Below, in pieces: positions 19,690-41,679 of a stretch of 64,000 nt of DNA (position 1 is the stretch's first letter; the number at the start of each line of letters is the position of its first letter). The notes under the pieces were generated by a model. That model saw only the letters and a list, made by a program, of their open reading frames with translations, was not told where the DNA came from and searched no databases. A program made the position numbers and the translations under genes. Source of the DNA: Desulfatiglandales bacterium (GTDB lineage Bacteria; Desulfobacterota; DSM-4660; Desulfatiglandales; Desulfatiglandaceae); contig OY762721.1 in NCBI GenBank assembly GCA_963666345.1, positions 2,560,001 to 2,624,000 on the forward strand, written 5' to 3'.

Positions 19690-19718
19690 CATGTTTAAAT
19701 ATATTCCAAAGGGATTAG

Positions 19719-20657: not shown

Positions 20658-20690
20658 TTAGAATATGAATCTATTAATATACGGATATAA

Positions 20691-21740
20691 ATGGAACTGC
20701 CAGAATATATAAATATCTCACCATGTCCAGCCGATATGTTGGGAAATATTATCGGACAGATAAAACCGACTAAAATATTTCTGATAACAGACACAAATGT
20801 CCATAAATATTGCTATTCACTTATTTCAGAAAATATTCCGCCGCATAATGTCGTGACTATATTACCGGGTGAAGACCAGAAGAATCTGCAGACATGCATT
20901 GATATCTGGAAGGCTATGACAGATGCCTGTTTGGACAGACACTCCGTTGTTATCAACCTTGGTGGTGGAGTAATTTGCGACATGGGTGGATTCTGCGCTT
21001 CGGTCTATAAACGGGGCCTCTCATTCATTCACTGTCCGACTACACTTTTATCTCAGGTGGACGCCTCTATTGGCGGCAAACTTGGAATTGATTTTGAAAA
21101 TTACAAAAATCAGATAGGTGCGTTTAATAATCCAAATTATGTAATTTTATCAAATGCTTTTCTGAAAACATTGCCGTTAAATGAACTACGATGCGGTTAT
21201 GCCGAAATGATCAAGCACGCGCTGATTAATAGCGTAGAAGACTGGGAAAAACAACTGTCAATGGACTTATCAGAAATTCCATCCGAAGAACAAATAATTA
21301 ATTCTATCAGCATTAAATACCAGGTTGTGTTACAGGATCCAAAGGAAACCGGAGTCAGAAAAGCACTTAATTTTGGCCATACCATAGGTCATGCCGTAGA
21401 AAGTATTCTTTTGGATGGCAAACAAATATCGATTACACACGGGGATGCAGTGGTTGTCGGATTGATTGCCGAATCCTGGTTAAGCTATAAGTGTTTAGGA
21501 TTAAAAAAGTCGGAATTGCACAGTATTTGTAGTTACATTACAAATTATTATCCCGAAATAGAGCTAAATGGAATTTCCGAACAAGATTTTTTTAATGCAT
21601 TGCTTCAGGATAAGAAAAACATTGGAAATAGAATCCTGCCTTCATTAATTAAAAGCATAGGCGAATGTATTGTTAGCGTTTCAGTATCTGCGGAATCATG
21701 CCTGGAAGCACTTAATTTTTATCGAACTATCTACAAGTAA
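20691..21740 (+). CDS. aroB: 3-dehydroquinate synthase
   Basis: GGGVICDMGGF, PTTLLSQVDASIGGK, EMIKH, LNFGHTIGHAVE, HGDAV. Confidence 0.9.
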   Translation: MELPEYINISPCPADMLGNIIGQIKPTKIFLITDTNVHKYCYSLISENIPPHNVVTILPGEDQKNLQTCIDIWKAMTDACLDRHSVVINLGGGVICDMGGFCASVYKRGLSFIHCPTTLLSQVDASIGGKLGIDFENYKNQIGAFNNPNYVILSNAFLKTLPLNELRCGYAEMIKHALINSVEDWEKQLSMDLSEIPSEEQIINSISIKYQVVLQDPKETGVRKALNFGHTIGHAVESILLDGKQISITHGDAVVVGLIAESWLSYKCLGLKKSELHSICSYITNYYPEIELNGISEQDFFNALLQDKKNIGNRILPSLIKSIGECIVSVSVSAESCLEALNFYRTIYK

Positions 21741-21760
21741 ACATTTACTAAGGTTAAAGC

Positions 21761-24987: not shown

Positions 24988-25020
24988 AAAGAAGGCCCCT
25001 TATTCTAAGGGGCCTTCTTT
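24988..25020. terminator. Bidirectional intrinsic terminator
   Basis: AAAGAAGGCCCCTT-ATTCT-AAGGGGCCTTCTTT between convergent genes. Confidence 0.88.
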
Positions 25021-25032: not shown

Positions 25033-26532
25033 TTATCGGATCTTTTTAGCCGGTTTTTTTGCCATACGCCATATGAAAAAGGCCGTAAGGATTATAAAAC
25101 CGCAGCTTATCGGCCTTTGAAGCACTATGAATGGGTTGTTCCTGCTCATTATGAGGGTCTGCTGGAAGGACAGCTCAAGCATGGGGGTCAGCACAAAACC
25201 TATGATAAAGGTTATGAAGCTTATCTTCAGCTTTTTCAGGAGAAAACCGAGAAAGGCGAAACCGAACATCATATATACGTTGAATATGCTGTTGTTGGCC
25301 ATATAGGCGCCGGTCATACATACGAACATTATGATGGGAAAGACTATGGCGCTTGATATGCTGAGGGCTTTTGCAAAGAATCTGAGCCCTATATTTCCGA
25401 TCAGAAGGTTTAAGACGTTGGCAATAAGCATTGCACCGTAGATGCCGTAGATGAGCTGTCCGTTTTCTTCAAAAAGAAGAGGTCCTGGTGTTACCCCGTG
25501 AATGATGAAAGCCCCGATAAGCATTGCAGATGCGACGTTTCCCGGAATACCCAGTGTGAAAAGGGGAATGAGATTGGCCCCGATGACCGCGTTATTGGCT
25601 GCCTCCGCCGCCGCTACGCCCTCTATGTTTCCTTTTCCAAATGAATCGGGGTCCTTGCTTGCCCTTTTGGCCGCGCCATAGCCTAGAAAGCTGGCGATGG
25701 TGGCCCCCAGTCCCGGAAGGGCGCCAAGGGCTGTCCCTATAAGACTGGAGCGGAAAATCGTTTTACCGCAGCTGCGGTATTCGGCCCAGGAGATGGTACG
25801 GTCGGCCTTGCTTATGTTTTTATCGAAAATGAGGCCGTTATCGCCTTGCTGTGCGTCATGCTTCATTTCTTCCAAACGAACTATTATTTCACTCAGCGCC
25901 AGAAGACCTATTCCCACCGTGATAACACTTATGCCCTCTTCAAGTTCCATGATGTCAAAGGCAAGACGAGGCATGGCGGACACTGGATCAAGGCCCACAC
26001 AGGCAAATGTTATACCCAGACATGCCCCTATGAGTCCTTTCAGCAGGGAGTCCGCTTCAAGACCGGCAATCATGGCAAGGGCGAAGACGATAACGGCGAA
26101 GATCTCCGGCGGCCCCATTTTAAGAGCGAGTGTGGCTATCGGCGCTGCAACGAAAATGAGCACAAGATCGGAAAAGGTGTCTCCTGTTACCGACGCATAA
26201 AGGCTTATCTTAAGAGCCTTTTCTCCCTTTCCCTGTTTTGCAAGCGGGTATCCGTCAAAGCAGGTAGCCGCGGCCTCCGGAGTCCCGGGGGTATTTAAGA
26301 GGATCGCAGCGATCGAGCCCCCAAAGGAGGCGCCTTTGTTGAGACCGATAAGAAAGGCCACTGCGATCAACGGGCCCATATAATATGTTATAGGCACCAT
26401 CAAGGCGATTGCCATGGGGCCGTTAAGACCCGGCAGGGCGCCCACGATGACACCTATGCCTACCCCCAGGGCAAGATATATTATGTTCCCCAGAGTAAAG
26501 GCGTCTGCAAAACCGGCGAGAATAGCTTCCAT
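25033..26532 (-). CDS. tctA: Tripartite tricarboxylate transporter, large permease
   Basis: GALPGL, ILLNTPGTP, DGYPLAKQG, EAANNA, TLGIPG. Confidence 0.95.
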   Translation of the reverse strand: MEAILAGFADAFTLGNIIYLALGVGIGVIVGALPGLNGPMAIALMVPITYYMGPLIAVAFLIGLNKGASFGGSIAAILLNTPGTPEAAATCFDGYPLAKQGKGEKALKISLYASVTGDTFSDLVLIFVAAPIATLALKMGPPEIFAVIVFALAMIAGLEADSLLKGLIGACLGITFACVGLDPVSAMPRLAFDIMELEEGISVITVGIGLLALSEIIVRLEEMKHDAQQGDNGLIFDKNISKADRTISWAEYRSCGKTIFRSSLIGTALGALPGLGATIASFLGYGAAKRASKDPDSFGKGNIEGVAAAEAANNAVIGANLIPLFTLGIPGNVASAMLIGAFIIHGVTPGPLLFEENGQLIYGIYGAMLIANVLNLLIGNIGLRFFAKALSISSAIVFPIIMFVCMTGAYMANNSIFNVYMMFGFAFLGFLLKKLKISFITFIIGFVLTPMLELSFQQTLIMSRNNPFIVLQRPISCGFIILTAFFIWRMAKKPAKKIR

Positions 26533-26570: not shown

Positions 26571-27032
26571 TTAAGGCAAAGGCATACTGAGGCCGTACCA
26601 GAGTGCCGCATACATGATAAGGGGTCCGGCTACGGCAACTGCCGATATCAGCGCAGGCCTTCTTTCTCCGCAGACAACCATCCCGGCTGCAATGGTAACG
26701 ATGCCCCCTGCGATATAGCCGAGAAATGAGAACACCAGGGTGCCGCATGCGAAAAGTCCAGCGTATTTTGCAAGGTGAATCCATGAGCCCCTGTTAATGG
26801 GGGCAGGGTCTTCATCTTCCTTTTTCCATGTGCCCGGCAGGTTTTTCAGGAGTAACAGCAGGGAAAGTATCCCCGTTACCGCCATGGCCGTAATCGGTAG
26901 TACATCGGATGGGGCGCCGAATTCTCCCGCCTCGGGGCACCATGCCGGGATAATAAAGAAAATCATTGCAATACTGAAACCGATAAGCATCAGGGCAACG
27001 ATAAAATCAGTCTTACGCATACCTTTCCTCAT
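26571..27032 (-). CDS. tctB: Tripartite tricarboxylate transporter, small permease
   Basis: 4-5 TM, ends in LSMPLP, lies between tctC and tctA. Confidence 0.85.
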   Translation of the reverse strand: MRKGMRKTDFIVALMLIGFSIAMIFFIIPAWCPEAGEFGAPSDVLPITAMAVTGILSLLLLLKNLPGTWKKEDEDPAPINRGSWIHLAKYAGLFACGTLVFSFLGYIAGGIVTIAAGMVVCGERRPALISAVAVAGPLIMYAALWYGLSMPLP

Positions 27033-27086: not shown

Positions 27087-28031
27087 TTATTTCCCAAGCA
27101 GTTTCTTAAAACCTGCTGCGTCTTTTTCTATTTGCATCAGGGTATCGGCAGGTCCTTTGAAGACCTTGAGCCAGTGGACCTTACTCTGAATGAGATCGGT
27201 CAGTTCCTTGTCCTGGGCTGCCTTTTGCATGGCGCCGGAAAGTTTTTCCAGAATGCCTTTGTCAACCCCTTTGGGTGTGTAAACAAAGCAGTAGTTGACA
27301 AAATCAATATCATAGCCGAGTGATTTGAGTGTAGGTATCTCAGGAAAGTCCACAAGGCCTTTACTTGAAAGGGCTGCGAGGATTTTTGCCTTCCCGGCCT
27401 TTACATATGAATAGTGAATTCCTCCGCTGAAGCCGAAGTCCACATGTTTTCCCATAACGGCACTTATGACGGCCGCGCCACCCTTTGTGGGAACCGGTTG
27501 AATCGTAAGCCCTTCTTTGGAACTGATGGCTTTGGTAAAAATCTTGTCGATCGGTATAAGGGATGCGTAGTTTACAAAACCATTCTTTTTCCCATAATCA
27601 ATCATTTCCCGCCATGTGGAAAACGGCGCATCAGCGTAAGTCACGAATGCCTCCTGAGACTGACAGATGCTTCCCACAACATCAAAGTCCTGGTAAGTGA
27701 AAGGGGCCTTTTTTGCAAAATAGGGATTAAAGGTCAGTGCGGTTATCATGTTGATGCCTATGGTATAGCCGTCCGGTTTGGCCATCTTCAGGCTCTTTGC
27801 ACCCAGTGAGCCGCCTGCGCCCCCCTTGTTTTCCACTATCACCGGCTGTCCCAGTTCGTCAGCCATATGCTTTGCAAGTATCCGTGCGATAGTATCGACA
27901 TTGCCACCCGCCCTGAAGGCCGCAATCATCTTTATAGGCCTTTGAGGGTATTCGGCAAAACAGGTTGATGAAAAGGAAAGACATAAAATAAAAAAAGATG
28001 TCAAGAGGGTTAAGGTTCCGATTTTTTTCAT
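27087..28031 (-). CDS. tctC: Tripartite tricarboxylate transporter substrate-binding protein (Bug/TctC)
   Basis: Signal peptide, YPQRPI, AGGNVD..AR, VENKGGAGG, KPDGYT, PTLKSLG. Confidence 0.93.
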   Translation of the reverse strand: MKKIGTLTLLTSFFILCLSFSSTCFAEYPQRPIKMIAAFRAGGNVDTIARILAKHMADELGQPVIVENKGGAGGSLGAKSLKMAKPDGYTIGINMITALTFNPYFAKKAPFTYQDFDVVGSICQSQEAFVTYADAPFSTWREMIDYGKKNGFVNYASLIPIDKIFTKAISSKEGLTIQPVPTKGGAAVISAVMGKHVDFGFSGGIHYSYVKAGKAKILAALSSKGLVDFPEIPTLKSLGYDIDFVNYCFVYTPKGVDKGILEKLSGAMQKAAQDKELTDLIQSKVHWLKVFKGPADTLMQIEKDAAGFKKLLGK

Positions 28032-28062: not shown

Positions 28063-28878
28063 TTAATTTTCTACCCCTGCCAGACGGTAGGCGCCCTCAG
28101 GATGTGACGTATCGCCACAAGCGCCCCTACGGGTCATTTCTGTAAAATAGATCTCGTCCCACTCCACGTTTGCAAGATTTACATGGGTGCCGAATTTGCT
28201 TACCATCCAGAAGAGTATCTGGGTCTTGTACGACTTGGTTACATCCGGAAGATACTGAACCGGAAGTTCGAACATGAGCTTTTCAGCAGGTATCTTTTGC
28301 ATTAATTCCTCTATTACATCTTCGCGGATGTCTCCATGGAACAGCTCATGGGCCTCCAGCAGGACGCACTTGCATCCAGCCTCCATGCATAGTTCGCAGT
28401 CGGCGATAATTTCATCCCCGCTCATAACGCCCTCTTTGCGGCCAACCTCTCCCATCACCACAAGTCCGAAATCATTGACCGCCTTTTTTATGGCCGCCCT
28501 TTTGTCGCCTGGTGAAAGTTTTATGAGATTGTCGCTAACTTCGATCCCTGAAAAGCCGAGATCAATTGATTCCTGAAGGTATTTTTCAAAGTTGCCCTGT
28601 ACAAGGGCAAGCTCGGCAAAAAGACCGCCTGGGAAGACAAAGATCCCGGCGTCCTTGTAGGCATTGATCTTTTTTTCGAGGTAGGGCTTTGGTGTAACTC
28701 CGGCAATGGATCCGGCTATCTTGGCCTCGTCCACGTAGAGACCCTGGCTTTCGATCAGGTCCAGCTGCATGTTAAAGGGGAGACCCCAGTCGATCATCAT
28801 GGTCTGCCCCTTGGTTCTTGGTTTGTCTTCCCTTTCGGGCATCGGGATGCTTCCATAGGCAAATGTAAGTTCACTCAT
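28063..28878 (-). CDS. comA: ComA-family (phosphosulfolactate synthase-like) protein, divergent
   Basis: KPRTKGQTMMIDWGL, FPGG, IEVSD, GEVGRK, VNLANV, E.TRRG..GDT. Confidence 0.85.
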   Translation of the reverse strand: MSELTFAYGSIPMPEREDKPRTKGQTMMIDWGLPFNMQLDLIESQGLYVDEAKIAGSIAGVTPKPYLEKKINAYKDAGIFVFPGGLFAELALVQGNFEKYLQESIDLGFSGIEVSDNLIKLSPGDKRAAIKKAVNDFGLVVMGEVGRKEGVMSGDEIIADCELCMEAGCKCVLLEAHELFHGDIREDVIEELMQKIPAEKLMFELPVQYLPDVTKSYKTQILFWMVSKFGTHVNLANVEWDEIYFTEMTRRGACGDTSHPEGAYRLAGVEN

Positions 28879-29671
28879 TCATATTCTCCTTAAGATCCTG
28901 TTTCTTTTTAACTGGTTGTGGGTAATAGCCCAGGTTGTATGAGATTTCTCCTGCCGCACCTCTCAGCTCACCGGCTAGGGTTTCAATTTGATCCCCGAGC
29001 ACCTTTACCGTGAGGCCTGACAGACTGATGGCCCCGAGCGGTCTGCCTTCCGGGCCCAGGATAGGAACACCGAGGCCGGATTGACCCAGAAGTGCTTCTT
29101 CCTCGGAAATGGAATAGCCCCGCTCTTTAGTCGTATCAAGTTCCTTCCTGATATCATTGACGTCGGTAATGGTGCGTGGTGTATAGGGTAGAGGGACAAG
29201 AGAATCCAGGTATCCATCCAGTTCCTCCTTTGAGACCGAAGAGAGAAAGGCCTTTCCCAGGGCCGTGCAGTATGCGGGAACTCGAGGGCCAAGCCGGCTC
29301 GGCTGCTCTGCGTGAGCCATCGGGGTGGATTGAAGGGATACGAGTATGGAGTCCCTATCCCAGATCCCTATCCTGCAAACAACACCGGCGTCATTTGCCA
29401 GCCGGCAGGCTATCTCTCTTCCTTCCCTGTTTATCCTCAGGTTCTTTACGACAATTCCACCCAGCTCAATATATTTGGCTGCCAGCATGTAATGGGCCTT
29501 TTTTTTGTCATAATCGAGATAGCCTGTTTCCCGCATGGTTGTCATGATTCCGTAGGCTGTTGCCTTGGCAAGTCCGAGTTCTTTTGAAACCTCCGCTAGA
29601 GTTAGTACCGGCTTGTTTGAGCTGAAAAGGGATAAAATGGAAAATGCGCGGCTGACGGATTGTATTGGCAT
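28871..29671 (-). CDS. IclR-family regulator
   Basis: IQSVSRAFSIL HTH, PAYCTALGKA, RGYS, AISLSG. Confidence 0.93.
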   Translation of the reverse strand: MPIQSVSRAFSILSLFSSNKPVLTLAEVSKELGLAKATAYGIMTTMRETGYLDYDKKKAHYMLAAKYIELGGIVVKNLRINREGREIACRLANDAGVVCRIGIWDRDSILVSLQSTPMAHAEQPSRLGPRVPAYCTALGKAFLSSVSKEELDGYLDSLVPLPYTPRTITDVNDIRKELDTTKERGYSISEEEALLGQSGLGVPILGPEGRPLGAISLSGLTVKVLGDQIETLAGELRGAAGEISYNLGYYPQPVKKKQDLKENMNE

Positions 29672-29702
29672 GAGTCCTCCTTATAATGTCGAATGGTATA
29701 CG

Positions 29703-29731
29703 ATTATATTTTATGCAAAAAGTCATGTCAA
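29703..29731 (-). promoter_or_regulatory. Consensus sigma70 promoter for iclR-comA-tctCBA
   Basis: Minus strand TTGACA-N17-TATAAT. Confidence 0.8.
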
Positions 29732-29829: not shown

Positions 29830-29859
29830 TTGACAGCAGAAAGAAAAAATAAATAGAAT
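29830..29859 (+). promoter_or_regulatory. Sigma70 promoter for sulfatase-ASST
   Basis: TTGACA-N18-TAGAAT. Confidence 0.65.
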
Positions 29860-29923
29860 ATCATTCGATAATGTTTAATACCAAATTGAAATATGACTGA
29901 ATTAAGAAAGGAGTATATCGCAA

Positions 29924-31339
29924 ATGAACCTTATTTTGGTTATCATCGATTCTCTCAGAAAAGATCATGTGGGTGCCTATGGCAATGAATGGATACATAC
30001 CCCTAATCTGGACAGCTTTTTTTCAGAGAGCATGAGGTTTACCAGTGCCTATCCTGAATCGCTTCCCACACTTCCGATGCGGAGGTCGATACATACCGGC
30101 ATCAGGACATTTCCCTTCAGAGGCTGGAAGGGACAGCCCACAAGCTATCCTCTTACCACAATGTTCGGGTCCAAGGTCTGGATCCCCGGCTGGACCGCCA
30201 TACCGTGGGAGCAGAAGACCCTTGCCGAGCATCTCAATGAATACAATTACGATTCCGGCTATTTTACAGACTGTTTTCATCAGGACTATGCGGGAATGAA
30301 CTTTCACCGGGGATTTCACGCCTGGGAGATGATCCGGGGGCAGGAGTGGGACTGCTGGAAGACCGATCCCGGAATGGCAAAAAGCGACATCGCGGCAAAG
30401 CATTTCACAAAGGGCATGGAATGGGAAAAGCGCAAGACATGGGAGCTTACCAGGTATCTTACAAACAACAGCCATCGTCAGAGCGAAGAGGACTATTTCC
30501 CGGCCCAGGTGTTCAGGGCCGCCACCCGCTGGATTGAAAAAAACAGGGACGCTGAGAATATCTTCGCGTGTGTCGACTGCTTTGATCCTCATGAACCTTG
30601 GGATCCCCCGAAACATTACAGGGAGCTTTATGATCCGGGATACAAGGGAACGGAGGTGATAATGCCGCTGTATTATGACAAGGCGGACAAGTACCTTACA
30701 CCTGAGGAGCTTAACCATATGAAGGCCATGTATGCGGGCGAATGCAGCATGGTGGATCGCTGGTTCGGTTTCTTTATGGATACGGTAAGACTCCTGGGGC
30801 TTGACAAAAATTCCATTATAGTAGTTACAAGTGATCACGGCCACCAGCTGGGGGAAAAGAACATGACGGGAAAGCTTCCCTGGGGGTTAATGCCCTGTCT
30901 GCTTGACCTGGTTATGGGGATACGCCATCCGCAAGGCGAAGGTGCTGGAAAGACCTGTGACGCCTATGCCATGAATCATGATATCATGCCTACCGTTCTT
31001 TCCATGATGGGTATTGATGTACCTGATCAGTGCGAGGGTGAGAACCTGTGGCCTGTCGCCATGGGGAAGGAAAACTCCAAGCGCGATCATGTGAGCACTA
31101 TTTTCAAGGATTACCTATGGACCGCGAATGATTCCTGGGCCCTGATTACAAGAAACAACAAGACCGAGATGGAACTCTACGACATTAAAAAGGACCCTGA
31201 ATATTTAAAAGACGTGTCGGCTGATCACCCGGAGGTGGTTGAACAGATGTGGAAAACCCTTCTTGAGGATGCAGGAGGTGACATCCCGATACCTGAAGGT
31301 GCAAGTGAGGCGATACTCGAAAAGGGCGGTATGAAGTAG
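29924..31339 (+). CDS. Sulfatase-like hydrolase (alkaline phosphatase superfamily) with Thr at the nucleophile position
   Basis: IIDSLRKD, PTLPMRRSIHTG, DPHEPWDPP, TSDHG; no signal peptide. Confidence 0.85.
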   Translation: MNLILVIIDSLRKDHVGAYGNEWIHTPNLDSFFSESMRFTSAYPESLPTLPMRRSIHTGIRTFPFRGWKGQPTSYPLTTMFGSKVWIPGWTAIPWEQKTLAEHLNEYNYDSGYFTDCFHQDYAGMNFHRGFHAWEMIRGQEWDCWKTDPGMAKSDIAAKHFTKGMEWEKRKTWELTRYLTNNSHRQSEEDYFPAQVFRAATRWIEKNRDAENIFACVDCFDPHEPWDPPKHYRELYDPGYKGTEVIMPLYYDKADKYLTPEELNHMKAMYAGECSMVDRWFGFFMDTVRLLGLDKNSIIVVTSDHGHQLGEKNMTGKLPWGLMPCLLDLVMGIRHPQGEGAGKTCDAYAMNHDIMPTVLSMMGIDVPDQCEGENLWPVAMGKENSKRDHVSTIFKDYLWTANDSWALITRNNKTEMELYDIKKDPEYLKDVSADHPEVVEQMWKTLLEDAGGDIPIPEGASEAILEKGGMK

Positions 31340-32681: not shown

Positions 32682-33281
32682 TTAGGACATGGAACGGGAA
32701 TAGACCTCGATACCCCTTTCAAAGCAGTCCATGTTTGCCTTGATAAAGGCCTTTTTGGTCTTTGTCTCTATAGCCTTTTTGAAGTCTGAGTCATTCATGG
32801 GAAGCTGCCCTGATGCGCAAAGCGCCCCGACCATCACCATGTTTACTCCCAGGGGGTTCCCGGCCGCCCTGGCCTCTTCCATGGCGTCAAAGGCCACGAC
32901 TTTACCCACCTTTGATCTGATGTAATCTATCGCCCCTTTTGTTTCAGGATATTTCCCCTGGCCGATGGCCACGGTAAAGGGGGGAATGGCTGATTTTGAC
33001 ATTATCACAAGGGTCTTGCAGTTCATCTTTTCCAGCGCCCTCATAGCCTCAAGAGGCTCGAACGCAAGCGCTATGTCCACCTCGCCCTCCGAGATAATGG
33101 AGCTGCAGGCGGGCCCCACAACGGCGGTCGACTCTACTACTCCGCCCCTTTGGGCCATACCGTGCGTCTCGCTCATATTGACCGGCACACCAGCTATGAT
33201 TGCCGCCTCTCCAACCAGTTTGGTGGCGAGGATGTTACCCTGTCCCCCGACACCTACGAAATATACTCTCTTTGTTTCCAT
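32682..33281 (-). CDS. iorB: Indolepyruvate:ferredoxin oxidoreductase beta subunit
   Basis: GVGGQG, SETHGMAQRGGVV, FEPLEA.R, NMVMVGA. Confidence 0.93.
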   Translation of the reverse strand: METKRVYFVGVGGQGNILATKLVGEAAIIAGVPVNMSETHGMAQRGGVVESTAVVGPACSSIISEGEVDIALAFEPLEAMRALEKMNCKTLVIMSKSAIPPFTVAIGQGKYPETKGAIDYIRSKVGKVVAFDAMEEARAAGNPLGVNMVMVGALCASGQLPMNDSDFKKAIETKTKKAFIKANMDCFERGIEVYSRSMS

Positions 33282-35140
33282 TATCGTCTCTCCTGTTTCT
33301 TCCTTGGTCCAATGGCGTTTTCAGGGCAGACCTGAACGCAGACCGCACATCCTATGCAGAGGTTGGGATCGATGTTCACCTTATCGCCGTCCAGATAAAA
33401 GGCAGGGCAGGCAAACTCTTTGTAACATGTGCCGCAACCCGTGCATTTTTCCTGTTTTACCTCAAACACCGGCCTCTTTGCCTTTTTGATTTTCATCTGG
33501 TGAAGCGGGCAGACCTCCCTTGATATGATCACGGAAAGCCCGTCATAGGCAAGTGCGTCTTCTACCGCCTTCTGTACCTTTTTGAGATTTGTGGGTCGGA
33601 CCACCTGAACATGTTTGACTCCAAGCCCTTTTACCACATCCTCAAGATCGATGTTGGTCAGGTTCTGCCCGGCCGCAACAGTGTCCATTGCTGCTGAAGG
33701 CTGATGCCCGGTCATGGCGGTGATTCCGTTATCCAGGATCACGAGCGTGAATTTGTGATTATTGAACACCGCGTTTGCAAGACCGGTCATTCCCGAATGA
33801 AAAAATGTACTGTCTCCTATGAAGCTTACCACTCTCTGTTCTGATGCGGTTGATATCCCGGCCGAACTGCTCACAGAGGCCCCCATACACAGGACCATGT
33901 CGGCCATGTTATAGGGGGGGAGAAAACCGAGCGTGTAGCATCCGATGTCGTTGGGGAAGATTGCATCGGGACCTGCCGCCTTTTTTACCGCATAATAGGT
34001 CATCCTGTGAGGGCATCCGGGACACAGGTTGGGAGGACGCAGCGGCAGCTCGGGGCGGTCGGATAAATCCAGCCTTGCTGGGCTTTCATAAGGTACCCCG
34101 AAAAACCGTGCCACAGCCTCCCTTACCATTGCAGGGTTATATTCCAGCATGCGGCTCAGTCCTGCAACTCCCTTTCCCTTTATCGAAAGGGCAAGTCCCG
34201 CCTCCTGGGCCGCCACCTTTACCGCCTCTTCCATAAAGGGTTCAAGCTCCTCGACCACCAGGACCTGTTCCTTTTCTTTGAGAAATTCCCTTATGAGCCT
34301 GAAGGGCATCGGATTACTCATCCCGATCCTGAGTACTGAGACCTTTTCTTCCAGACCCAGGTCCTTTACGGCATCCATGACATAGTTAAATGAGATGCCG
34401 TTTGAAACAATGCCTAATGAGGCCTTGCCTATAATCAGGTTGTAGGGGCTGTTGTTGCTTATCTTTTCCGCTTTTTTCTGCTTTCCAAGAAGTCTCTTGT
34501 GCATGGCAGGGGTGTTGGAGGGGAGGGTCACAAATTCTTTAGGCGATTTTTCAAAATGGCCTGCATTTTCAGGCCGTTTTATCTCTCCAAGCTCAACCAC
34601 TCCCCTTGAGTGGGCGATCCTGGTCGTGGACCTGATGATGACCGGGATATTCAGCTGCTCTGAGAGATCAAAGGCAAAAACGGTCATATCCTTCATCTCC
34701 TGGGCATTTACAGGTTCAAGAAGGGGAAGACCGGAAAATTTCGCAAAATACCTGTTGTCCTGTTCGTTCTGGCTTGAAAACATGGATGGGTCATCCGCGT
34801 TGTATATTACCATACCGGCCCTGACCCCCATGTAGGCAAGGGTCATCATTGGATCGGCAGCCACGTTCATCCCGACATGCTTCATTGCGGTCAGGCTCCT
34901 GACCCCGCTTATGGCAGCTCCTCCTGTCGCCTCCATTGCAACCTTTTCATTGGTTGCAAATTCCATGTAAAAGCCCATTTTGTCCTTGAGTGCGAAAAGG
35001 TTGTTGGGTACCTCTGAAGAGGGGGTACCAGGGTAGCAGCTGGCAAAGGACATCCCCGCCTCAAACGCGCCTCGGACAAGAGCCTCGTTTCCTAGAAACA
35101 GGGCCTTTTGGCCCTTTCTATCAGATGTTAGTTCCGACAT
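33281..35140 (-). CDS. iorA: Indolepyruvate:ferredoxin oxidoreductase alpha subunit
   Basis: LGNEA, YPGTPSSE, NEKVA, LCPGCPHR, DIGCY, GDSTFFHSG, C-terminal 2x[4Fe-4S]; start set at MSELT. Confidence 0.94.
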   Translation of the reverse strand: MSELTSDRKGQKALFLGNEALVRGAFEAGMSFASCYPGTPSSEVPNNLFALKDKMGFYMEFATNEKVAMEATGGAAISGVRSLTAMKHVGMNVAADPMMTLAYMGVRAGMVIYNADDPSMFSSQNEQDNRYFAKFSGLPLLEPVNAQEMKDMTVFAFDLSEQLNIPVIIRSTTRIAHSRGVVELGEIKRPENAGHFEKSPKEFVTLPSNTPAMHKRLLGKQKKAEKISNNSPYNLIIGKASLGIVSNGISFNYVMDAVKDLGLEEKVSVLRIGMSNPMPFRLIREFLKEKEQVLVVEELEPFMEEAVKVAAQEAGLALSIKGKGVAGLSRMLEYNPAMVREAVARFFGVPYESPARLDLSDRPELPLRPPNLCPGCPHRMTYYAVKKAAGPDAIFPNDIGCYTLGFLPPYNMADMVLCMGASVSSSAGISTASEQRVVSFIGDSTFFHSGMTGLANAVFNNHKFTLVILDNGITAMTGHQPSAAMDTVAAGQNLTNIDLEDVVKGLGVKHVQVVRPTNLKKVQKAVEDALAYDGLSVIISREVCPLHQMKIKKAKRPVFEVKQEKCTGCGTCYKEFACPAFYLDGDKVNIDPNLCIGCAVCVQVCPENAIGPRKKQERR

Positions 35141-35281
35141 GCATGATCCATCCTTTCTATATAAATTTACAGTAAAATAAGCTCCTGCCGGTGCATGAAA
35201 AAGGGGCACAACAGAAGCTGAGTTGAAAATCAAAAGATCCAACTGACGGCCTTGATCGAGCAGGCCTTAAATGAAGTTTTT

Positions 35282-36070
35282 TCAGGGTCTATAGGCGCCG
35301 TTTAGAAACTGCGGTTCTATGTGATAACCCATGTAGTTTGATATTTCGCCTGCCGTATCCATTACCCTCTGCGCAAGGGTATGAAACTTCTCCCCGCTTA
35401 TCTTTTTCGGGTCTCCGTTAAGGCTTATAGCGCCAACCACCTCTCCATCGATTCCGAATATGGGAGCGCCTATGCTGTCAAGATGCATCATGAGTTCCTG
35501 GTGAACCACCGAGTAGCCTCTGTCCCTGGTTTCGGCAAGTTCCGCAAGTATAAGATCACGCTCAGATATGGTCTTCGGTGTGTATTTTATAAGTTCCACC
35601 CTTTTAAGATGTTGATCAATCTCCTGGTCAGACATAAAAGCGAGAACCGCCCTTCCCATGGAAGAACAGAAGGCGGGAACGCTCGGACCCATGTAGGGGG
35701 CAGCCGACCCGCTTTCAAGGGGCAGCGTGCTCATGGTGACTATGACGGCATCCCTGTGAAAGACTCCCAGCCTGCCTATGAGGCCGGTTTCCCGCGCAAG
35801 GTAGCTGACCGGTATGGAGGCCTTCTGATTGAGCTCAAAGGTGCCTTCATATATTGTGCCGAGCACGTGGAGCCTTATGCCGAGGCGGTATTCCCGGCTC
35901 CTGGGTGCCTTTTTAAGAAAACCGGCAACCTCGAGTGCCTGTACAATACCGTGAGCCGTGCCTATGGGAAGCTTAACCGCTTTTGCAATGTCACTGATGC
36001 GCCACTGGGGTCGTGCATAGGAAAAAAGTGAAAGTATATCGGACGCCCTTTGTATTGACTGGTTGCTCAT
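35282..36070 (-). CDS. IclR-family regulator (paralog of 28871-29671)
   Basis: NQSIQRASDILSLFS, PAFCSSMGRA, RGYS; RBS GGAGG before ATG 36070. Confidence 0.92.
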   Translation of the reverse strand: MSNQSIQRASDILSLFSYARPQWRISDIAKAVKLPIGTAHGIVQALEVAGFLKKAPRSREYRLGIRLHVLGTIYEGTFELNQKASIPVSYLARETGLIGRLGVFHRDAVIVTMSTLPLESGSAAPYMGPSVPAFCSSMGRAVLAFMSDQEIDQHLKRVELIKYTPKTISERDLILAELAETRDRGYSVVHQELMMHLDSIGAPIFGIDGEVVGAISLNGDPKKISGEKFHTLAQRVMDTAGEISNYMGYHIEPQFLNGAYRP

Positions 36071-36080
36071 ATGACCTCCT

Positions 36081-36230
36081 TTCGAATATGTCGAACAATA
36101 ATTAAAATAAAGAAAAAATAAAGCCATGTCAACCGATAATAACAAGAAAAATAGCCAAAAACCCTTGACAGGTGTGAATTACAGCTATAATATTTTGTAA
36201 ATTATAAATACATTTCGACATAGTCGAAAT
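36081..36230. promoter_or_regulatory. Divergent promoter region with two TTCGA-N5-TCGAA palindromes (putative IclR operators)
   Basis: 36081-36095 TTCGAatatgTCGAA; 36212-36230 ATTTCGACataGTCGAAAT; TTGACA at 36165 (+) and 36127-36132 (-). Confidence 0.7.
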
Positions 36231-36307
36231 TATAGGTTTTACGATCGGCTGCATATGCAGCCGATTCTTTTATCGAAGAGAGACGGATTTTAGGAGGACC
36301 ACTCTGG

Positions 36308-38935
36308 ATGCAATGGTTAAGCGAGTTAGAGAGGATCGTAGGGCCGGATAATTTGTTGTCGGAAAAGGTCGACTGTCTTGGCTATTCAAGGGACATGTCC
36401 ATTCATGAAGGGGTGCCTGAGGCGGTTGTTTTTGCGCAGAACACGGAGCAGGTCTCTCAGGTGGTCTCGCTTGCAAATCAAGAAGGGATACCGGTGACGG
36501 CAAGAGGTGCAGGAACATCGGTCACAGGTGCCTCTCTTGCCTCAAAAGGAGGCATAATCCTTAACCTGGTCAAGATGAACAGAATAATTGAGATAAACAG
36601 GACAGACTGTTACGCAGTGGTTGAACCTGGCGTAATCTGTGATGATCTCAACAGGGAGCTTGCCCCTGCCCATTTTTATCCGCCTGACCCGGGATCGGCA
36701 CCTGTTGCGACTATAGGAGGCATGGTAAGCACAAACGCCTCAGGCGTGCGGGCGGTAAAGTACGGAACTGCAAGGGACTACATCAAGGCCATGAAGGTGG
36801 TTCTTGCAGACGGCAGGGTCATAAACACCGGGACCAAGGCCCCTAAATCATCGGCGGGATATGATCTTAACAGGCTTTTTTCAACCTCGGAGGGGACTCT
36901 CGGCATCATCACGGAGATTACCGCCAAGATTCTGCCGGTGCCTGAATACGCCGCCTTTGCCAAGCTTTCCTTTCCTTCCATAGTGGAGGCCGGTGCAGTC
37001 GTAGAGGAGATAATAAGAAAGGGTATCCCGATATCTACCTGTGAAATCCTTGACGGTGTTTCAATTGAAGCGGTCAAGGAGGCCATGGGGCTTAAGATCC
37101 CGGGAAATGTCAGCGCACTTGTGTTTGCCGAGATTGACGGGGCCCGTGCCGCAGTAAAGAGTCAAATGGAAGAAATGAATTCCATTTTTAGAGAAAAAGG
37201 GGGGATTGAAATAGAGTGGTCGGACGACCAGGAAAGACGGGCCGAGATATGGTCGGCCCGTCATGGACTTGTTTCATCTCTTTCCCGATTGCACAGGGGC
37301 TCCAGGCAGGTGCCGATTACAGAGGACTTCGGCGTGCCCATGAGCAGGATCCCTGAAACCATAGATGCGATACAGGAAATCGGGCGAAGATACGGGGTCG
37401 ATATCGCCACCTTCGGTCATATAGGGGACGGAAACCTTCACGCCGTTCTTTTAATGGATATAAGAGATAAGGATGAATGGGAGACCATAAGAAAGATATC
37501 TGAGGAATTCATTGATCTGACCCTTCGGCTTGAAGGGACACTTACGGCGGAGCATGGCATAGGCATGGCCAAATCACCCTACATAGAAAGAGAACTGAAC
37601 GGCGCACTGGATGTCATGCAGACGGTAAAGAGCGCGCTTGACCCGAAAAATATCCTCAATCCGGGTAAAATGGGTTTTAATGACTCCATAGGTTATATCT
37701 ATGACAGGTGCGGCTCAAGGGACCTTGAAGGTGGAATAAGGGAGGAAAGCAGCCTGGGGGAATCAGCGGACGAAGACGTCCTTGCATGTACCCAGTGCGG
37801 TTTCTGCAGCCTTGTCTGTCCCACCTATTCCGAGACCCGGATTGAAACCATGAACGCGAGAGGAAGAAACACCCTTGCGTTTGATCTTTTAAGCGGCAGG
37901 GCGGAGTTGAGCGAGCAGATGGTAAATCGCTTCTATCAGTGCACCATGTGCGATGCATGTGCCTCATCATGCCCGGCGGGTGTAAAGACCAGCAGGATAG
38001 TACAGGCGGTCCGGAAAAAGTCATTCGCCTCGGGGTTTGCCCCGGAAGGTATCAGGATGGCAAACAGATCCGTGGAGGATAACAGAAATCCCTTTATGCA
38101 GCCGAGGGACGAAAGGGACGAATGCTTTATCGATCCGCCAGCGGCACCTGAGGGTGCCGAGGTTTTATACTGGCCCGGCTGCGTCAGCTCATACCAGGAA
38201 GAGGACGTCGTGCCTGCAACGGCGGAGCTTCTGGACAGGGCGGGGATCGCATGGACCGCACTTGGCAATGAAGAGGGATGCTGCGGATATCTCGCATATG
38301 TAAGCGGTGACATGGAGCTTTTTGATGAGCTCATGAAGGAAAACCTGGCGGCCTTTAAGAGATCAAAGGTGAAAACCCTGGTTACGACATGCCCCGGCTG
38401 CTACAGGACCTTCAAGGACCTGTACGGAAAGGATAAAGGGGGCCTGGAGGTACTTCATTCCACGGAGTATTTCAGCCGTCTTATTCAGGAGGGCAGGCTG
38501 CGGTTTTCAGAAGGCGGCACACCTCTCAGGGCTGTTTATCATGATCCTTGTGATCTCGGCAGGCATATGGGGGTCTATGAAGCACCCAGGGAGATTCTCA
38601 GGTCCATGAAGGATGTTGAGCTGCTGGAGTTCAGCAGAAATCGTGAAAACGCCAGATGCTGCGGGGCTGGAGGGGGCATGAAAGGTCATGACCTTAATCT
38701 GTCTCTTGATGTGGCCTCCAGGCATATCCTTGAGGCCGCCGAAATGGGTGCCGACGCCATAGTGAGTGCGTGCGGCACGTGCAAGAAGAATTTCCAGCAC
38801 GCAACGGTGCGGGTGAGAAAAAAAGGGCTGCTTTCCAGGAGGATCGCAGTCTATGACGTTATGGAACTGATGGCCCAAAGGATGGTTGTCTCCTCCTGCG
38901 GGGCATTGGATAAGGCCGCCAGGGAGGCCGCCTAG
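36308..38935 (+). CDS. FAD-dependent 2-hydroxyacid dehydrogenase fused to Fe-S/CCG domains (GlcD-GlcF / Dld-type)
   Basis: RGAGTS, PPDPGS, EGTLGIITE, GHIGDGNLH, AEHGIG; two CxxCxxCxxxC motifs; CCG motifs. Confidence 0.92.
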   Translation: MQWLSELERIVGPDNLLSEKVDCLGYSRDMSIHEGVPEAVVFAQNTEQVSQVVSLANQEGIPVTARGAGTSVTGASLASKGGIILNLVKMNRIIEINRTDCYAVVEPGVICDDLNRELAPAHFYPPDPGSAPVATIGGMVSTNASGVRAVKYGTARDYIKAMKVVLADGRVINTGTKAPKSSAGYDLNRLFSTSEGTLGIITEITAKILPVPEYAAFAKLSFPSIVEAGAVVEEIIRKGIPISTCEILDGVSIEAVKEAMGLKIPGNVSALVFAEIDGARAAVKSQMEEMNSIFREKGGIEIEWSDDQERRAEIWSARHGLVSSLSRLHRGSRQVPITEDFGVPMSRIPETIDAIQEIGRRYGVDIATFGHIGDGNLHAVLLMDIRDKDEWETIRKISEEFIDLTLRLEGTLTAEHGIGMAKSPYIERELNGALDVMQTVKSALDPKNILNPGKMGFNDSIGYIYDRCGSRDLEGGIREESSLGESADEDVLACTQCGFCSLVCPTYSETRIETMNARGRNTLAFDLLSGRAELSEQMVNRFYQCTMCDACASSCPAGVKTSRIVQAVRKKSFASGFAPEGIRMANRSVEDNRNPFMQPRDERDECFIDPPAAPEGAEVLYWPGCVSSYQEEDVVPATAELLDRAGIAWTALGNEEGCCGYLAYVSGDMELFDELMKENLAAFKRSKVKTLVTTCPGCYRTFKDLYGKDKGGLEVLHSTEYFSRLIQEGRLRFSEGGTPLRAVYHDPCDLGRHMGVYEAPREILRSMKDVELLEFSRNRENARCCGAGGGMKGHDLNLSLDVASRHILEAAEMGADAIVSACGTCKKNFQHATVRVRKKGLLSRRIAVYDVMELMAQRMVVSSCGALDKAAREAA

Positions 38936-39222
38936 GTCATGGAAGGTGTTATTATGAAAAATAAGAGGAAAAAACCGGGACTGCGAGCCTGGGCAGGATT
39001 GTGGCAGTATCGGTGTCAGACAGAATAGGTTGGGAAACACCATCCTGACGGTACTTGTAGTTCAGGTCTGCCTCATGTCTCTGGCCGTCAGGATAGTCGG
39101 AGGCGAGGCCGCCCGGTAATGACAAGAAAACTTGAAAGTGCGGACGAAGGTGATTATTAGAGGTTGATCTTTTACCTACAGATGAATATCGGAAACGAAA
39201 AAATATCTTGGAGTCTAGGAAT

Positions 39223-41679
39223 ATGAAATCAAAAAAAAATAAAGGTGATGGCGGTCCTTCCATGATCAGGGAAACGCCGGGGCTGGAGATCGATTTTGAT
39301 GCTATAACAATGCAGTTTCAAGCCGCCTATGAAGAGGGGCGCGGATTTCTGTTCGAGCATGAGGTTTACGGCCTGCTGAAGACCTCCGGGGCGGAAACCC
39401 CTCCCAAGTCGAAACTGCTCCTTAAGGGAAGCCGACCTTCGGACCGGGATCTGATTGAGCTTTCGGGCGAATATGTGGTTCTCAAGATCGTGTCCCCCAT
39501 GATTATTCATAAGACGGAGGTGGGGGGGGTCAGGGTTGTTGAAAACAGGTCTGAAAAGATCCGTTCGGCATGGCGAAGGATGATGCATGAGGTACCTGAA
39601 AATTATTCATCATGGATTGAAAAGAACAGGGGTTCAGAGCCTGCGGCCTACAGGGGGTTAAGCTCCGAGACCCTTCTTTCGGCTATCTCAAGCGATATCA
39701 AGGGGGTGCTGATGGTTCAGTACATGCCCCCTGATTCAGAGGCCTTCGGCAATGAACTGATAGTGGGTATAAGGCGAACCAGGGAATTCGGTATGGTCAT
39801 AAGTGCCGGACTGGGGGGGACCGACACCGAGCTTTATGCCGATCGGTTCAGGAAGGGGCAGGCCATAGTTGCGGCCTCCACCGAGCTTACAGACATCGAT
39901 ACCTTTTTTGAGATATTCAAGAGGACTATTTCCTATAAAAAACTTGCCGGGCTTACCAGGGGTCAGAGGCGGATTGTCACTGATGAGCAACTGGTAGAAT
40001 GTTTTTCCTCTTTTATCGCAATGGCCAATTTTTTCTCCCCGACAAATGAAAGGGCACCCTTTGTAATTGATGAGCTTGAGATAAACCCTTTTGCCTTTTC
40101 AGATTTTTTGATGGTGCCCCTTGACGGGCTTTGCAGATTTTCGGAAAAGGGGAAAAAGGGCGCTTCAAGGCCTATTGAAAAGATAGGCCGTCTTCTTCAT
40201 CCGGGATCCATAGGGATTGTCGGGGTTTCGGCGAAAAGGATGAATTTCGGCCGGATAATACTCAAAAATATCCTCGCAAACGGTTTTGATCCACAAAAGG
40301 TCTATATAATAAAACCGGGCACGGATCAGATAGACGGCATAAGGTGTGTGCCCGACCTGAAATCTCTTGAACAGAGGCTCGATCTGTTTGTGGTTGCAGT
40401 CGATGCAAGCAAACTGCCTCAGCTTGTTGAAGAGGTGATAGATCTGAAGGCCGCGGAATCGGTCATGCTTATCCCGGGGGGGCTGGGCGAGAAAAAGGGG
40501 AGTGAGGAAAGGGCGAAAAGGCTCATAAAAAAGATAGGTGATTCTCACAAAACTCCCGACGGCGGTCCGGTATTTCTGGGGGCCAATTGCCTGGGGGTCA
40601 TATCGCATCCAGGCTCATTTGACACCCTTTTTATCCCTGAGGAAAAGCTGCCCAAGGACAGAAAATCCAGAAAGCAGAGGGCTGCGTTTGTCAGCCAGAG
40701 CGGTGCCTTCATGATAACCAGGCTGAGTAAAAAACCGTGTCTTGATCCCTCCTATGTCATTTCAGTGGGAAATCAGACAGACCTCACCCTGGCGGATATC
40801 GTCATCTACCTAAAGGATCTGGATGATATCGATGTCATAGCGGTTTATGCGGAAGGTTTCAAGGATCTCGACGGCCTTGCCTTTGCGCGCGCCGTCAGGC
40901 AGGCGATACTCAGGGGCAAGTACGTCGTCTTTTACAAGGCGGGTCGTACCCCCGAGGGCAAGACCGCCACTTCAGGGCACACTGCATCCCTTGCCGGTGA
41001 TTACATGATCTGTGAATCTCTTATCATGCAGGCAGGCGCGATCGTTGCCCAGACATTTAGCCAGTTTGAATCCCTTTTTCTTCTGGCCGAGCGGCTTCAT
41101 GGGAAGAAAATAAGAGGAAACCGGATGGCGGCCGTAAGCGGGGCCGGTTTTGAGGCCGTGGGTATGGCGGACAGCATATATTCGGATGACTATGACATGC
41201 AGTTAGGAGCCTTTGCCGGCGAAACCGTGAGAACAATCGAGGGCATACTGGAGGAAAATTCCCTCCACACCCTGGTAGACGTAAGAAACCCTCTGGACAT
41301 AAACCCCACTGCCAGTGATGAGGTGCATGTCAGGGTAGTGGAATCCCTTATCGGGGACCCCAATGTCGATTGCGTCATAGTGGGCCTGGATCCCCTGTCG
41401 CCGGTAACCTGTACCCTGGCCGGTGACACGAATGGTTTCTCTCTTGATTCGGAAAAAGGGACTGCAAGGCTGATGCCCGATCTCGCATCAAGGAGCGAAA
41501 AGCCTATAGTGGGAGTCGTGGATGGGGGAAAACGGTATGATCCCCTGGTGGAGGCCCTTGAGAAGACGGGTCTTCCCATGTTCAGGTCCTCCGATATGGC
41601 CGTGTCGGCCCTGGCAAGATACATAAAAGGAAGATTGAGGGCTGAAAAAATCCGCCTCAGAAACGGAATAGACAGATAA
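39223..41679 (+). CDS. ADP-forming acetate/acyl-CoA ligase (ATP-grasp N-terminal, CoA-binding C-terminal); start uncertain
   Basis: LKIVSP.IIHKTEVGGV, ELEINP, GANCLG, SQSGA, SGHTASLAG (phospho-His), NPLD. Confidence 0.9.
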   Translation: MKSKKNKGDGGPSMIRETPGLEIDFDAITMQFQAAYEEGRGFLFEHEVYGLLKTSGAETPPKSKLLLKGSRPSDRDLIELSGEYVVLKIVSPMIIHKTEVGGVRVVENRSEKIRSAWRRMMHEVPENYSSWIEKNRGSEPAAYRGLSSETLLSAISSDIKGVLMVQYMPPDSEAFGNELIVGIRRTREFGMVISAGLGGTDTELYADRFRKGQAIVAASTELTDIDTFFEIFKRTISYKKLAGLTRGQRRIVTDEQLVECFSSFIAMANFFSPTNERAPFVIDELEINPFAFSDFLMVPLDGLCRFSEKGKKGASRPIEKIGRLLHPGSIGIVGVSAKRMNFGRIILKNILANGFDPQKVYIIKPGTDQIDGIRCVPDLKSLEQRLDLFVVAVDASKLPQLVEEVIDLKAAESVMLIPGGLGEKKGSEERAKRLIKKIGDSHKTPDGGPVFLGANCLGVISHPGSFDTLFIPEEKLPKDRKSRKQRAAFVSQSGAFMITRLSKKPCLDPSYVISVGNQTDLTLADIVIYLKDLDDIDVIAVYAEGFKDLDGLAFARAVRQAILRGKYVVFYKAGRTPEGKTATSGHTASLAGDYMICESLIMQAGAIVAQTFSQFESLFLLAERLHGKKIRGNRMAAVSGAGFEAVGMADSIYSDDYDMQLGAFAGETVRTIEGILEENSLHTLVDVRNPLDINPTASDEVHVRVVESLIGDPNVDCVIVGLDPLSPVTCTLAGDTNGFSLDSEKGTARLMPDLASRSEKPIVGVVDGGKRYDPLVEALEKTGLPMFRSSDMAVSALARYIKGRLRAEKIRLRNGIDR

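Follow-up and report, generated by a model that had tools for sequence, protein, structure and literature searches.

A divergent ComA-family gene in a carboxylate-uptake operon of a Desulfatiglandales bacterium belongs to a clade found beside sulfatases

An uptake operon with a ComA-like gene

We analyzed a 64,000-nt stretch of the genome of a Desulfatiglandales bacterium (assembly GCA_963666345.1, contig OY762721.1, positions 2,560,001 to 2,624,000; hereafter, the window). Its minus strand carries an operon with the gene order iclR, comA-like, tctC, tctB, and tctA (Table 1). An earlier reading of the sequence alone (the sequence-only reading) had identified the second gene as a divergent ComA and as a possible sulfite-releasing lyase. 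The gene is real and lies on the minus strand, which that reading left unstated: its interval is open on that strand only, and it encodes a protein of 271 aa, which we call P0001. We report that P0001 is not a canonical phosphosulfolactate synthase, as judged by sequence comparisons, and that its clade is coupled to sulfatases across phyla. This coupling is a stronger and more novel signal than sulfite release.

As the sequence-only reading had noticed, the comA-like gene overlaps the iclR stop and precedes a transporter. Its ATG (28878-28876) overlaps the TGA of iclR (28873-28871), for a total of 8 nt, within ATGAGTGA, and there is an AGGAG upstream. The transporter genes are tctCBA, and the remaining gaps in the operon are 31 nt (comA-like/tctC), 54 nt (tctC/tctB), and 38 nt (tctB/tctA). 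The best NCBIfam match of the IclR regulator is the PcaR/PcaU/PobR subfamily (136.6 bits, which is below the cut-off for that subfamily).

Table 1. Features of the uptake operon and of the genes beside it, in window coordinates
Feature	Position	Strand	Evidence
Sigma-70-like promoter upstream of iclR	29703..29731	-	TTGACA-17-TATAAT, 12/12; consensus match only
IclR-family regulator, operon gene 1	28871..29671	-	Pfam HTH_IclR + IclR_C
Divergent ComA-family enzyme P0001	28063..28878	-	PF02679, 271 aa
TctC substrate-binding protein, N-terminal signal peptide	27087..28031	-	Pfam TctC 155.4 bits
TctB small membrane subunit	26571..27032	-	Pfam TctB 39.6 bits
TctA large membrane subunit	25033..26532	-	Pfam TctA 476.5 bits
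Weak terminator-like hairpin after tctA	24996..25011	-	pattern match only
Divergent sigma-70-like promoter upstream of sulfatase-family gene	29830..29859	+	11/12; pattern match only
Cytoplasmic sulfatase-family (PF00884) protein, Thr at formylglycine position (T-L-P-M-R)	29924..31339	+	
Arylsulfotransferase (ASST)-like beta-propeller, N-terminal hydrophobic segment	31364..32608	+	PF05935 67.8 bits
IorB/IorA (-), second IclR (-), FAD-linked 2-hydroxy-acid oxidase with CCG domains (+), ADP-forming acyl-CoA synthetase (+)	32682..41679	mixed	

When we searched the region of the divergent promoters for inverted repeats, we found weak palindromes only. Each of the two promoter-like sites is followed closely by a heptamer, TCGAATG (29690-29696) or its reverse complement CATTCGA (29863-29869); the two could be half-sites of an operator for the IclR regulator, or they may be due to chance. 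An Rfam scan of the window found no match.

P0001 has the ComA fold but lies outside the canonical synthases

P0001 matches the Pfam ComA family (PF02679) at 183.9 bits (the cut-off is 25.2), and the match covers profile positions 1-243 of 243. The closest solved structure is ComA of Methanocaldococcus jannaschii (PDB 1qwg; E = 7.5e-30, 32% identity), and the phosphosulfolactate synthase of Bacillus subtilis (1u83) is a more distant solved relative. We predicted the structure of P0001 with AlphaFold2 from 32 members of its clade, and the model (pLDDT 91.6, pTM 0.90) has eight strand-helix units. The structural comparison with M. jannaschii ComA that the sequence-only reading had proposed bears out the family assignment: Foldseek ranked 1qwg first (TM 0.80/0.86), 9cm1 second, and 1u83 third (TM 0.76/0.91), and the matches after these three fall sharply, to TM about 0.5. 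(9cm1 is a designed nanoparticle, and its chain is named phosphosulfolactate synthase in the PDB.) P0001 is a ComA-family member with, according to this model, a ComA-type (beta/alpha)8 barrel.

The sequence-only reading had pointed to KIAGSI in place of KFGWGT, EAHE in place of EGRE, and an insertion, and all three are present when P0001 is aligned to 1qwg. In the HMMER alignment, AKIAGSIAGV is opposite VKFGWGTSAV, and LLEAHE......LF is opposite IIEGRESGKGKGLF, so that H replaces R and the loop is partly gone. Extra residues (the VQYLPDVTKS region) follow ELP and face gaps in the 1qwg chain. Lys148 of P0001 aligns with K137 of the M. jannaschii enzyme, which is reportedly its catalytic acid. 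The conserved acidic residues at the barrel face of ComA presumably have catalytic roles as well.

These differences are not private to P0001; they are common to a large clade. A phmmer search of 1.84 billion representative sequences found 864 relatives of P0001 at E of 1e-3 or better. We aligned 125 sequences (119 full-length proteins of 230-330 aa among 150 listed, the window protein, and five close relatives), which fall by motif into 24 "canonical" sequences, 65 "clade B" sequences (including P0001), and 36 others. The canonical group has the motifs K-[LF]-G-[FW]-G-T, S-D-G, and E-[GA]-R-E-S-G..V-G-I-[YF]-D. Position 177 is Arg in 24/24 canonical sequences and in 0/65 clade-B sequences, and it is His in P0001. 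Position 117 is Gly in 24/24 canonical sequences but is mostly Asn in clade B, as it is in P0001 (S-D-N versus the canonical S-D-G). P0001 also has a deletion of the Gly-rich loop after strand 6 and an insertion after strand 7. In the AlphaFold2 model, the replaced positions sit just after predicted strands 2, 4, 6, and 7, on the catalytic face. The remodelled loops also have cationic residues that are specific to the sulfatase-linked clade (K218 is invariant, and H181 and R185 are near-invariant). Fifteen positions are kept across all of the groups (R21, D30, D50, K53, K70, E89, E113, S115, E144, K148, E175, E178, E204, N237, and R250).

Two other comparisons set P0001 apart. First, it scores 154.4 bits against the NCBIfam equivalog for phosphosulfolactate synthase (TIGR03849), which has a cut-off of 280. 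The canonical group scores 254-344 bits (20/24 are at 280 or above), four "other" sequences nested within the canonical clade score 268-300, and all 22 of the scanned proteins from outside the canonical clade score 130-213. Second, clustering with canonical ComA had been set beforehand as the outcome that would count against a divergent enzyme, and the tree places P0001 elsewhere. (This is a quick maximum likelihood tree with LG+G4 and SH-aLRT support only; its 105 rows are all 24 canonical sequences, 32/65 from clade B, 31/36 of the others, and 18 from the window and the named loci, and XcbB and YitD are not among them.) P0001 groups with sequences from Desulfobacterales, Rhodospirillales, Burkholderiales, Roseobacteraceae, Granulosicoccus, and Actinomycetota in a clade of 18 rows (SH-aLRT 98), and the canonical clade of 28 rows (99) is separate from it. 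Because P0001 scores below the TIGR03849 cut-off, lies outside the canonical clade, and has lost the canonical Arg and the Gly-rich loop, it appears not to be a canonical phosphosulfolactate synthase for coenzyme M.

A word-indexed search found 232 relatives. The 119 others that are listed are 60-84% identical to P0001, and every source name among them is "phosphosulfolactate synthase."

Genes for relatives of P0001 lie beside sulfatases and carboxylate importers

To describe the neighborhoods of P0001-like genes, we scanned contigs from one genome per species (12 loci, and then 79, with a narrow clade alignment as the query for the 79). We called open reading frames with a GC3-weighted heuristic in 78 loci and the window (a 306-bp fragment, L081, was dropped), clustered the products, and annotated the cluster representatives with Pfam. 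Before counting, we split the loci at a natural gap in identity between 46% and 42%, and we considered features within 7 kb.

Among the loci with at least 46% identity to P0001 (the near loci), at least 42 of 57 have a sulfatase-class gene, as compared to 2/21 of the more distant loci. The sulfatase-class genes are of three kinds. A PF00884 sulfatase is present in at least 31/57 near loci (1/21 distant), a metallo-beta-lactamase (MBL) protein with an Alkyl_sulf_dimr domain in at least 10/57 (0/21), and an MBL protein of ~294 aa (MBL294) in at least 14/57 (1/21). The best PDB matches of the MBL + Alkyl_sulf_dimr protein are the sec-alkylsulfatase Pisa1, YjcS, and SdsA1, and the best match of MBL294 is 8gyg, an entry named arylsulfatase (E = 2.9e-18). 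Genes for tripartite tricarboxylate transporters (TTT) show a similar split (at least 37/57 near and 3/21 distant), as do ASST-like genes (at least 8/57 and 0/21), while TAXI/TRAP genes show the opposite one (0/57 and 10/21). These sulfatase-class neighbors and the ASST-like genes are the main clue that was absent from the sequence-only reading. We define the sulfatase-linked clade by at least 46% identity to P0001 and by the presence, within 7 kb, of both a carboxylate importer and a sulfatase-class gene. The window fits this definition in a variant of its own, with a PF00884-family gene 1 kb from the comA-like gene and tctCBA adjacent to it.

The near loci are from Desulfobacterales, Rhodospirillales, Burkholderiales, Rhodobacterales, and Actinomycetota, and their gene orders differ by lineage. 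In Desulfobacterales, the order is IclR-ComA-TctCBA-AlkS-MBL-ASST. In Rhodospirillales, it is SULF-TctA-TctB-TctC-(SULF or DUF3604)-MarR, divergent from ComA, and then SULF and FMN_dh (where SULF is a sulfatase). Roseobacteraceae, Hyphomicrobiales, and Granulosicoccus have MBL-SULF-MarR, divergent from TctCBA-ComA; Burkholderiales have LysR-SULF-TctC-ComA; and Arthrobacter mangrovi has MBL-ComA-x-SULF-MFS-FGE-FAD oxidase. Most of the PF00884 neighbors that are listed have C-x-P-x-R. Because their sequences open directly at the catalytic domain, we take these sulfatases to be cytoplasmic.

Two features of particular loci deserve mention. First, Rhodospirillales loci that are otherwise collinear differ in the gene that lies between tctC and marR, which encodes either a DUF3604 protein or a PF00884 sulfatase (L028-L030 and L035 versus L037-L045). 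DUF3604 may be a functional stand-in for the sulfatase and possibly an unrecognised sulfate-ester hydrolase. It also adjoins more distant ComA-like genes (L007, L074, L082, and L092). Second, at L003:4099-9885, genes for a URO-D-like methyltransferase, a B12-binding corrinoid protein, and a pterin-binding methyltransferase are intermixed with genes of the MBL294, ComA-like, and alkylsulfatase-like types, and a full-length ASST (631 aa) is nearby. This O-demethylase-like set hints at methoxylated or sulfated aromatic substrates.

Neighboring genes in the window

The PF00884 gene of the window is transcribed divergently from the operon, together with the ASST-like gene. Its T-L-P-M-R aligns to S-A-P-S-R of 7an1. 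A 61%-identical orthologue is directly upstream of ComA in another locus (L005:2270-3682), and the Thr is kept, as P-T-[LVM]-P-x-R, in 8/8 relatives that we fetched. Thr is not convertible to formylglycine. In the alkaline-phosphatase superfamily, a Thr nucleophile elsewhere goes with phosphoryl transfer. The Thr-type subfamily (the window, L005, and L097-L103) has an A-Y-G-N-E-W-I-H-T-P motif and lacks a signal peptide, and it occurs in Desulfobacterota, Planctomycetota, Armatimonadota, and Gaiella. The ASST-like protein matches PDB 9kf4, "Sulfotransferase" (E = 3e-11).

Beyond the ASST-like gene, the module at 32682..41679 is possibly linked to the operon, by adjacency. IorB/IorA are of the indolepyruvate:ferredoxin oxidoreductase type, and the FAD-linked oxidase is fused with Fe-S and CCG domains. 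The module resembles a pathway that would turn aryl-2-hydroxy or 2-oxo acids into arylacetates and yield ATP.

Elsewhere in the window, the plus strand at 4388-23104 has a long run of genes for glycosyltransferases, FkbM/TylF-type methyltransferases, DegT aminotransferases, ATP-grasp proteins, and short-chain dehydrogenases/reductases. The run terminates in a dehydroquinate-synthase-family gene and a class II 3-deoxy-D-arabinoheptulosonate 7-phosphate synthase, which is an unusual pairing of sugar modification with shikimate-type genes. Downstream of the locus, a CI/LexA-like S24 repressor (44436-45095) and a TraT-like lipoprotein gene (50176-50919) are possibly remnants of mobile DNA.

The rest of the host genome

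The host genome assembly is 96.7% complete and has only one ComA-family gene. The sequence-only reading described an uptake operon without the other com genes, and it suggested a genome-wide search for comB. The description stands for the operon, and neither ComC nor ComD was found in the 96.7%-complete genome (the xcb genes and comE were not searched). It does not extend to comB in the genome as a whole: there is a ComB-family gene (PF04029), but it is unlinked, ~420 kb from the operon, among unrelated genes (asnS, a low-molecular-weight phosphatase, and TauE). The ComB family was also detected in 7/14 control genomes, several of which lack ComA.

When 40 related genomes were searched, a relative of P0001 was found in just one more, at 32% identity. 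Hence, the comA-like gene is accessory and was probably acquired. Near-identical DNA (at least 0.95 of sampled words) is present in three marine-sediment metagenome studies.

The host genome encodes DsrA (574 bits), and a weaker match immediately beside it is taken to be DsrB. Because DsrA/DsrB-type genes are present, sulfite and sulfate should be usable as electron acceptors by the host. The genome has 8 PF00884 genes in 4.16 Mb, so the chance of finding one in a 15-kb interval is ~3%. As for known sulfonate lyases, the search for a glycyl-radical type found no gene like pyruvate formate-lyase in the host genome, but there are four SuyB/UxaA-family genes, so a sulfolactate lyase of a known kind may already be present. 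One SuyB-like gene is in a locus with the order TRAP-AOR-3-hydroxyisobutyrate-dehydrogenase-like-SuyB-like-GntR-sulfatase-LarA-like-TctC (AOR, aldehyde:ferredoxin oxidoreductase). The SuyB/UxaA-family loci at C1:786000-801000 (L093) and C1:3908000-3920000 (L095) have as neighbors a TRAP transporter, an aldehyde:ferredoxin oxidoreductase or aldehyde dehydrogenase, a 3-hydroxyisobutyrate-dehydrogenase-like gene, a LarA-like gene, a sulfatase, and an orphan TctC. These loci could serve in catabolism of the 2,3-dihydroxypropane-1-sulfonate or sulfolactate type.

Proposed function of P0001 and alternatives

We favor a catabolic role for P0001 over one in coenzyme M synthesis because a non-canonical ComA is encoded in an uptake operon and because no comC or comD was found. 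On this point, the catabolic, non-canonical role that had been read from the sequence alone is supported by the TIGR03849 score, the tree, the operon context, and the missing com genes. As the residues that are kept family-wide are intact, those specific to the canonical group are replaced, and the clade has cationic residues of its own, we infer that enolate chemistry is kept and that the substrate is no longer phosphoenolpyruvate (PEP) or phosphosulfolactate, but is still polyanionic. Once the importer and the cytoplasmic sulfatases are taken into account, a lyase reaction (or the reverse addition) on a sulfated or sulfonated acid would be the most economical choice. So, with moderate confidence, we propose that P0001 is a catabolic enolate-forming lyase that acts on an imported sulfated or sulfonated carboxylate and releases sulfite or sulfate for its DsrAB-bearing host.

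In this proposal, TctCBA, controlled by IclR, would take up an organic acid with sulfur-oxygen groups (a sulfate ester and/or a sulfonate), possibly one derived from a 2-hydroxy acid or a phenolic acid. Once this acid is in the cytoplasm, the ComA-like enzyme would remove the proton beside the carboxylate and expel the beta substituent, or would perform the reverse addition, using acidic residues at the C-terminal face of the barrel and Lys148 (the counterpart of M. jannaschii Lys137). The neighboring sulfatase-class enzymes would strip the ester sulfate or sulfates. The carbon product would be an enol or a 2-oxo or 2-hydroxy acid that enters central metabolism, and the freed sulfite or sulfate would serve as the electron acceptor for a DsrAB-bearing sediment bacterium. 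We propose a sulfur oxyanion as the leaving group. Sulfite release by the ComA-like enzyme is plausible, and we tentatively suggest sulfite by family precedent; sulfate is a less likely choice. As the conserved partners are three classes of sulfatase and ASST-like genes, sulfate esters seem to be at least as implicated as sulfonates.

Several observations weigh against this proposal. First, the partners of the clade are not all present in the host: alkylsulfatase-like and MBL294 genes are absent from the host genome (tblastn, E of 1e-5), as are DUF3604 and FMN_dh, and the sulfatase-family protein of the window (with Thr, which is neither Cys nor Ser) may be no sulfatase at all. Second, the association is imperfect. 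There are 14/57 near loci without a sulfatase-class or DUF3604 gene. In six of these, all alphaproteobacterial (L063-L068), a ComA-like gene that is ~50% identical has neither a sulfatase nor an importer but a fixed, housekeeping-like context (SecD-TrkH-M20 peptidase-ComA-Hsp33-OTC-aminotransferase, with arginine-synthesis genes). Also, related loci are not independent of one another, and our caller recovered the ComA open reading frame in 65/79 sources (it missed 14), so that all of the neighborhood counts are lower bounds. Third, known desulfonation genes are often flanked by genes for a sulfite exporter or a sulfite dehydrogenase, and none were seen in the annotated neighborhoods. Finally, the neighborhoods repeatedly contain 2-hydroxy-acid dehydrogenases (FMN_dh in 5 loci and FAD-linked oxidases in L060 and the window), and these fit a role on the desulfated carbon skeleton equally well.

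That role is the best of the alternatives, although we consider it somewhat unlikely: the ComA-like enzyme would act after desulfation, with no sulfur leaving group, as a dehydratase, hydratase, tautomerase, or racemase of a 2-hydroxy or enol acid that the sulfatase releases. Besides the dehydrogenases, it would explain why three mechanistically different classes of sulfatase interchange beside the comA-like gene, as if they merely unmask an alcohol. Also, distant relatives with a transporter alone (TAXI/TRAP in 10/21) suggest a one-step conversion of an imported acid. On the other hand, K218, H181, and R185 of the sulfatase-linked clade suggest recognition of an additional anionic group by the enzyme itself, and the only known chemistry in the ComA family involves sulfite.

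A more specific idea, which we regard as improbable, is that the clade is a novel type of sulfur-oxyanion lyase. It would be the sulfate-ester counterpart of the ComA/enolase reaction and would convert a 2-O-sulfated, 3-substituted propanoate (or an aryl analogue) to an enol sulfate of the "sulfoenolpyruvate" type, with the expulsion of sulfite, sulfate, or water. The cytoplasmic sulfatases would then hydrolyse the enol sulfate to a 2-oxo acid. If true, two enzymes would together process small acids with several sulfate or sulfonate groups, from which sulfate reducers could draw both carbon and an electron acceptor. A related question is whether the importer brings in a sulfated phenolic acid, as hinted at by the ASST-like genes, the arylsulfatase-like MBL protein, the PcaR-like IclR, the MarR regulators, the corrinoid methyltransferases of L003, and the IorAB/FAD-oxidase/ADP-forming CoA-synthetase module. 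We could derive no ComA-type reaction for such a compound, so it is a lead only.

Another possibility is that the ComA-like enzyme runs the canonical reaction in reverse on imported phosphosulfolactate, to yield PEP and sulfite. A study of the SAR11 pangenome makes the same proposal, from annotation alone, for a TTT cassette that is flanked by two "phosphosulfolactate synthases" (PMC11796062). TTT genes accompany the family at many loci, and the formation of PEP would conserve energy. However, we know of no documented free phosphosulfolactate in the environment. Also, the loss of the canonical Arg and the Gly-rich loop is not what we would expect in an enzyme for a trianionic substrate that has stayed the same, the neighborhoods have no conserved kinase or phosphatase, and the sulfatases would be left without a role. 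We consider this reaction very unlikely. It is just as hard to believe that P0001 is an ordinary phosphosulfolactate synthase making a sulfonate for the cell (sulfolactate, coenzyme M, or another), since its clear family membership, its retained core residues, and the ComB-family gene in the genome are outweighed by its low score and its place in the tree, by its operon, which also encodes a catabolic-type regulator and an importer that depends on a binding protein, by the failure to find ComC or ComD, and by its patchy spread among related genomes, which is typical of accessory catabolic genes.

Given the uptake transporter and, in many distant bacteria, the sulfatases beside the gene, the most likely role of P0001 is an as yet undescribed step in the breakdown of imported organic sulfur compounds, and not coenzyme M synthesis. 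The annotation "phosphosulfolactate synthase" is at present given to the whole family. For the sulfatase-linked clade, it is probably wrong, and it inflates the apparent potential for coenzyme M or sulfonate biosynthesis in metagenomes. The pairing of this clade with cytoplasmic sulfatases and carboxylate importers spans marine sulfate reducers to soil actinomycetes, which suggests that the sulfur cycle includes an unassigned reaction and an organosulfur substrate, a small molecule, that has gone unrecognised. The clade is open to direct testing, as several carriers are in culture (Candidimonas humi DSM 25336, Arthrobacter mangrovi NBRC 112813, Sulfitobacter brevis DSM 11443, and Tropicibacter sp.).

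Comparison with known systems

In literature searches that covered mostly listings and abstracts, we found no description of a sulfatase-linked ComA clade or of an assayed catabolic ComA; the searches brought up only the SAR11 proposal (PMC11796062) and a review of TTT systems (PMC5812351). The nearest characterized relative, M. jannaschii ComA ((2R)-phospho-3-sulfolactate synthase, EC 4.4.1.19), shares with P0001 its Pfam family, the TIM barrel, the acidic residues, and the Lys. P0001 differs from it by His for Arg, K-I-A-G-S-I for K-F-G-W-G-T, S-D-N for S-D-G, the deleted Gly-rich loop, the strand-7 insertion, and a C-terminal extension. The setting of M. jannaschii ComA is biosynthetic, while that of P0001 is an uptake operon.

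Among bacteria, the family of P0001 includes XcbB of Xanthobacter autotrophicus Py2, from the bacterial coenzyme M pathway, and YitD of B. subtilis (1u83). Both XcbB and ComA add sulfite to PEP (PMC9457059). The genes for XcbB and YitD accompany biosynthetic partners (xcbA-E), whereas P0001 is encoded together with a regulator, an importer, and enzymes that act on sulfate esters.

A possible functional analogue is SuyAB ((2R)-sulfolactate sulfo-lyase, EC 4.4.1.24), which eliminates sulfite from the beta position of a C3 sulfonated 2-hydroxy acid, although its fold (the UxaA/altronate-dehydratase family) is unrelated to that of P0001. SuyAB is often fed by SlcHFG, a TTT importer for sulfolactate (PMC5812351). 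In the clade of P0001, the conserved neighbors are like those of known sulfatase clusters, with FGly-type (formylglycine) PF00884 enzymes, MBL alkylsulfatases (Pisa1/SdsA1), and an MBL arylsulfatase (8gyg).

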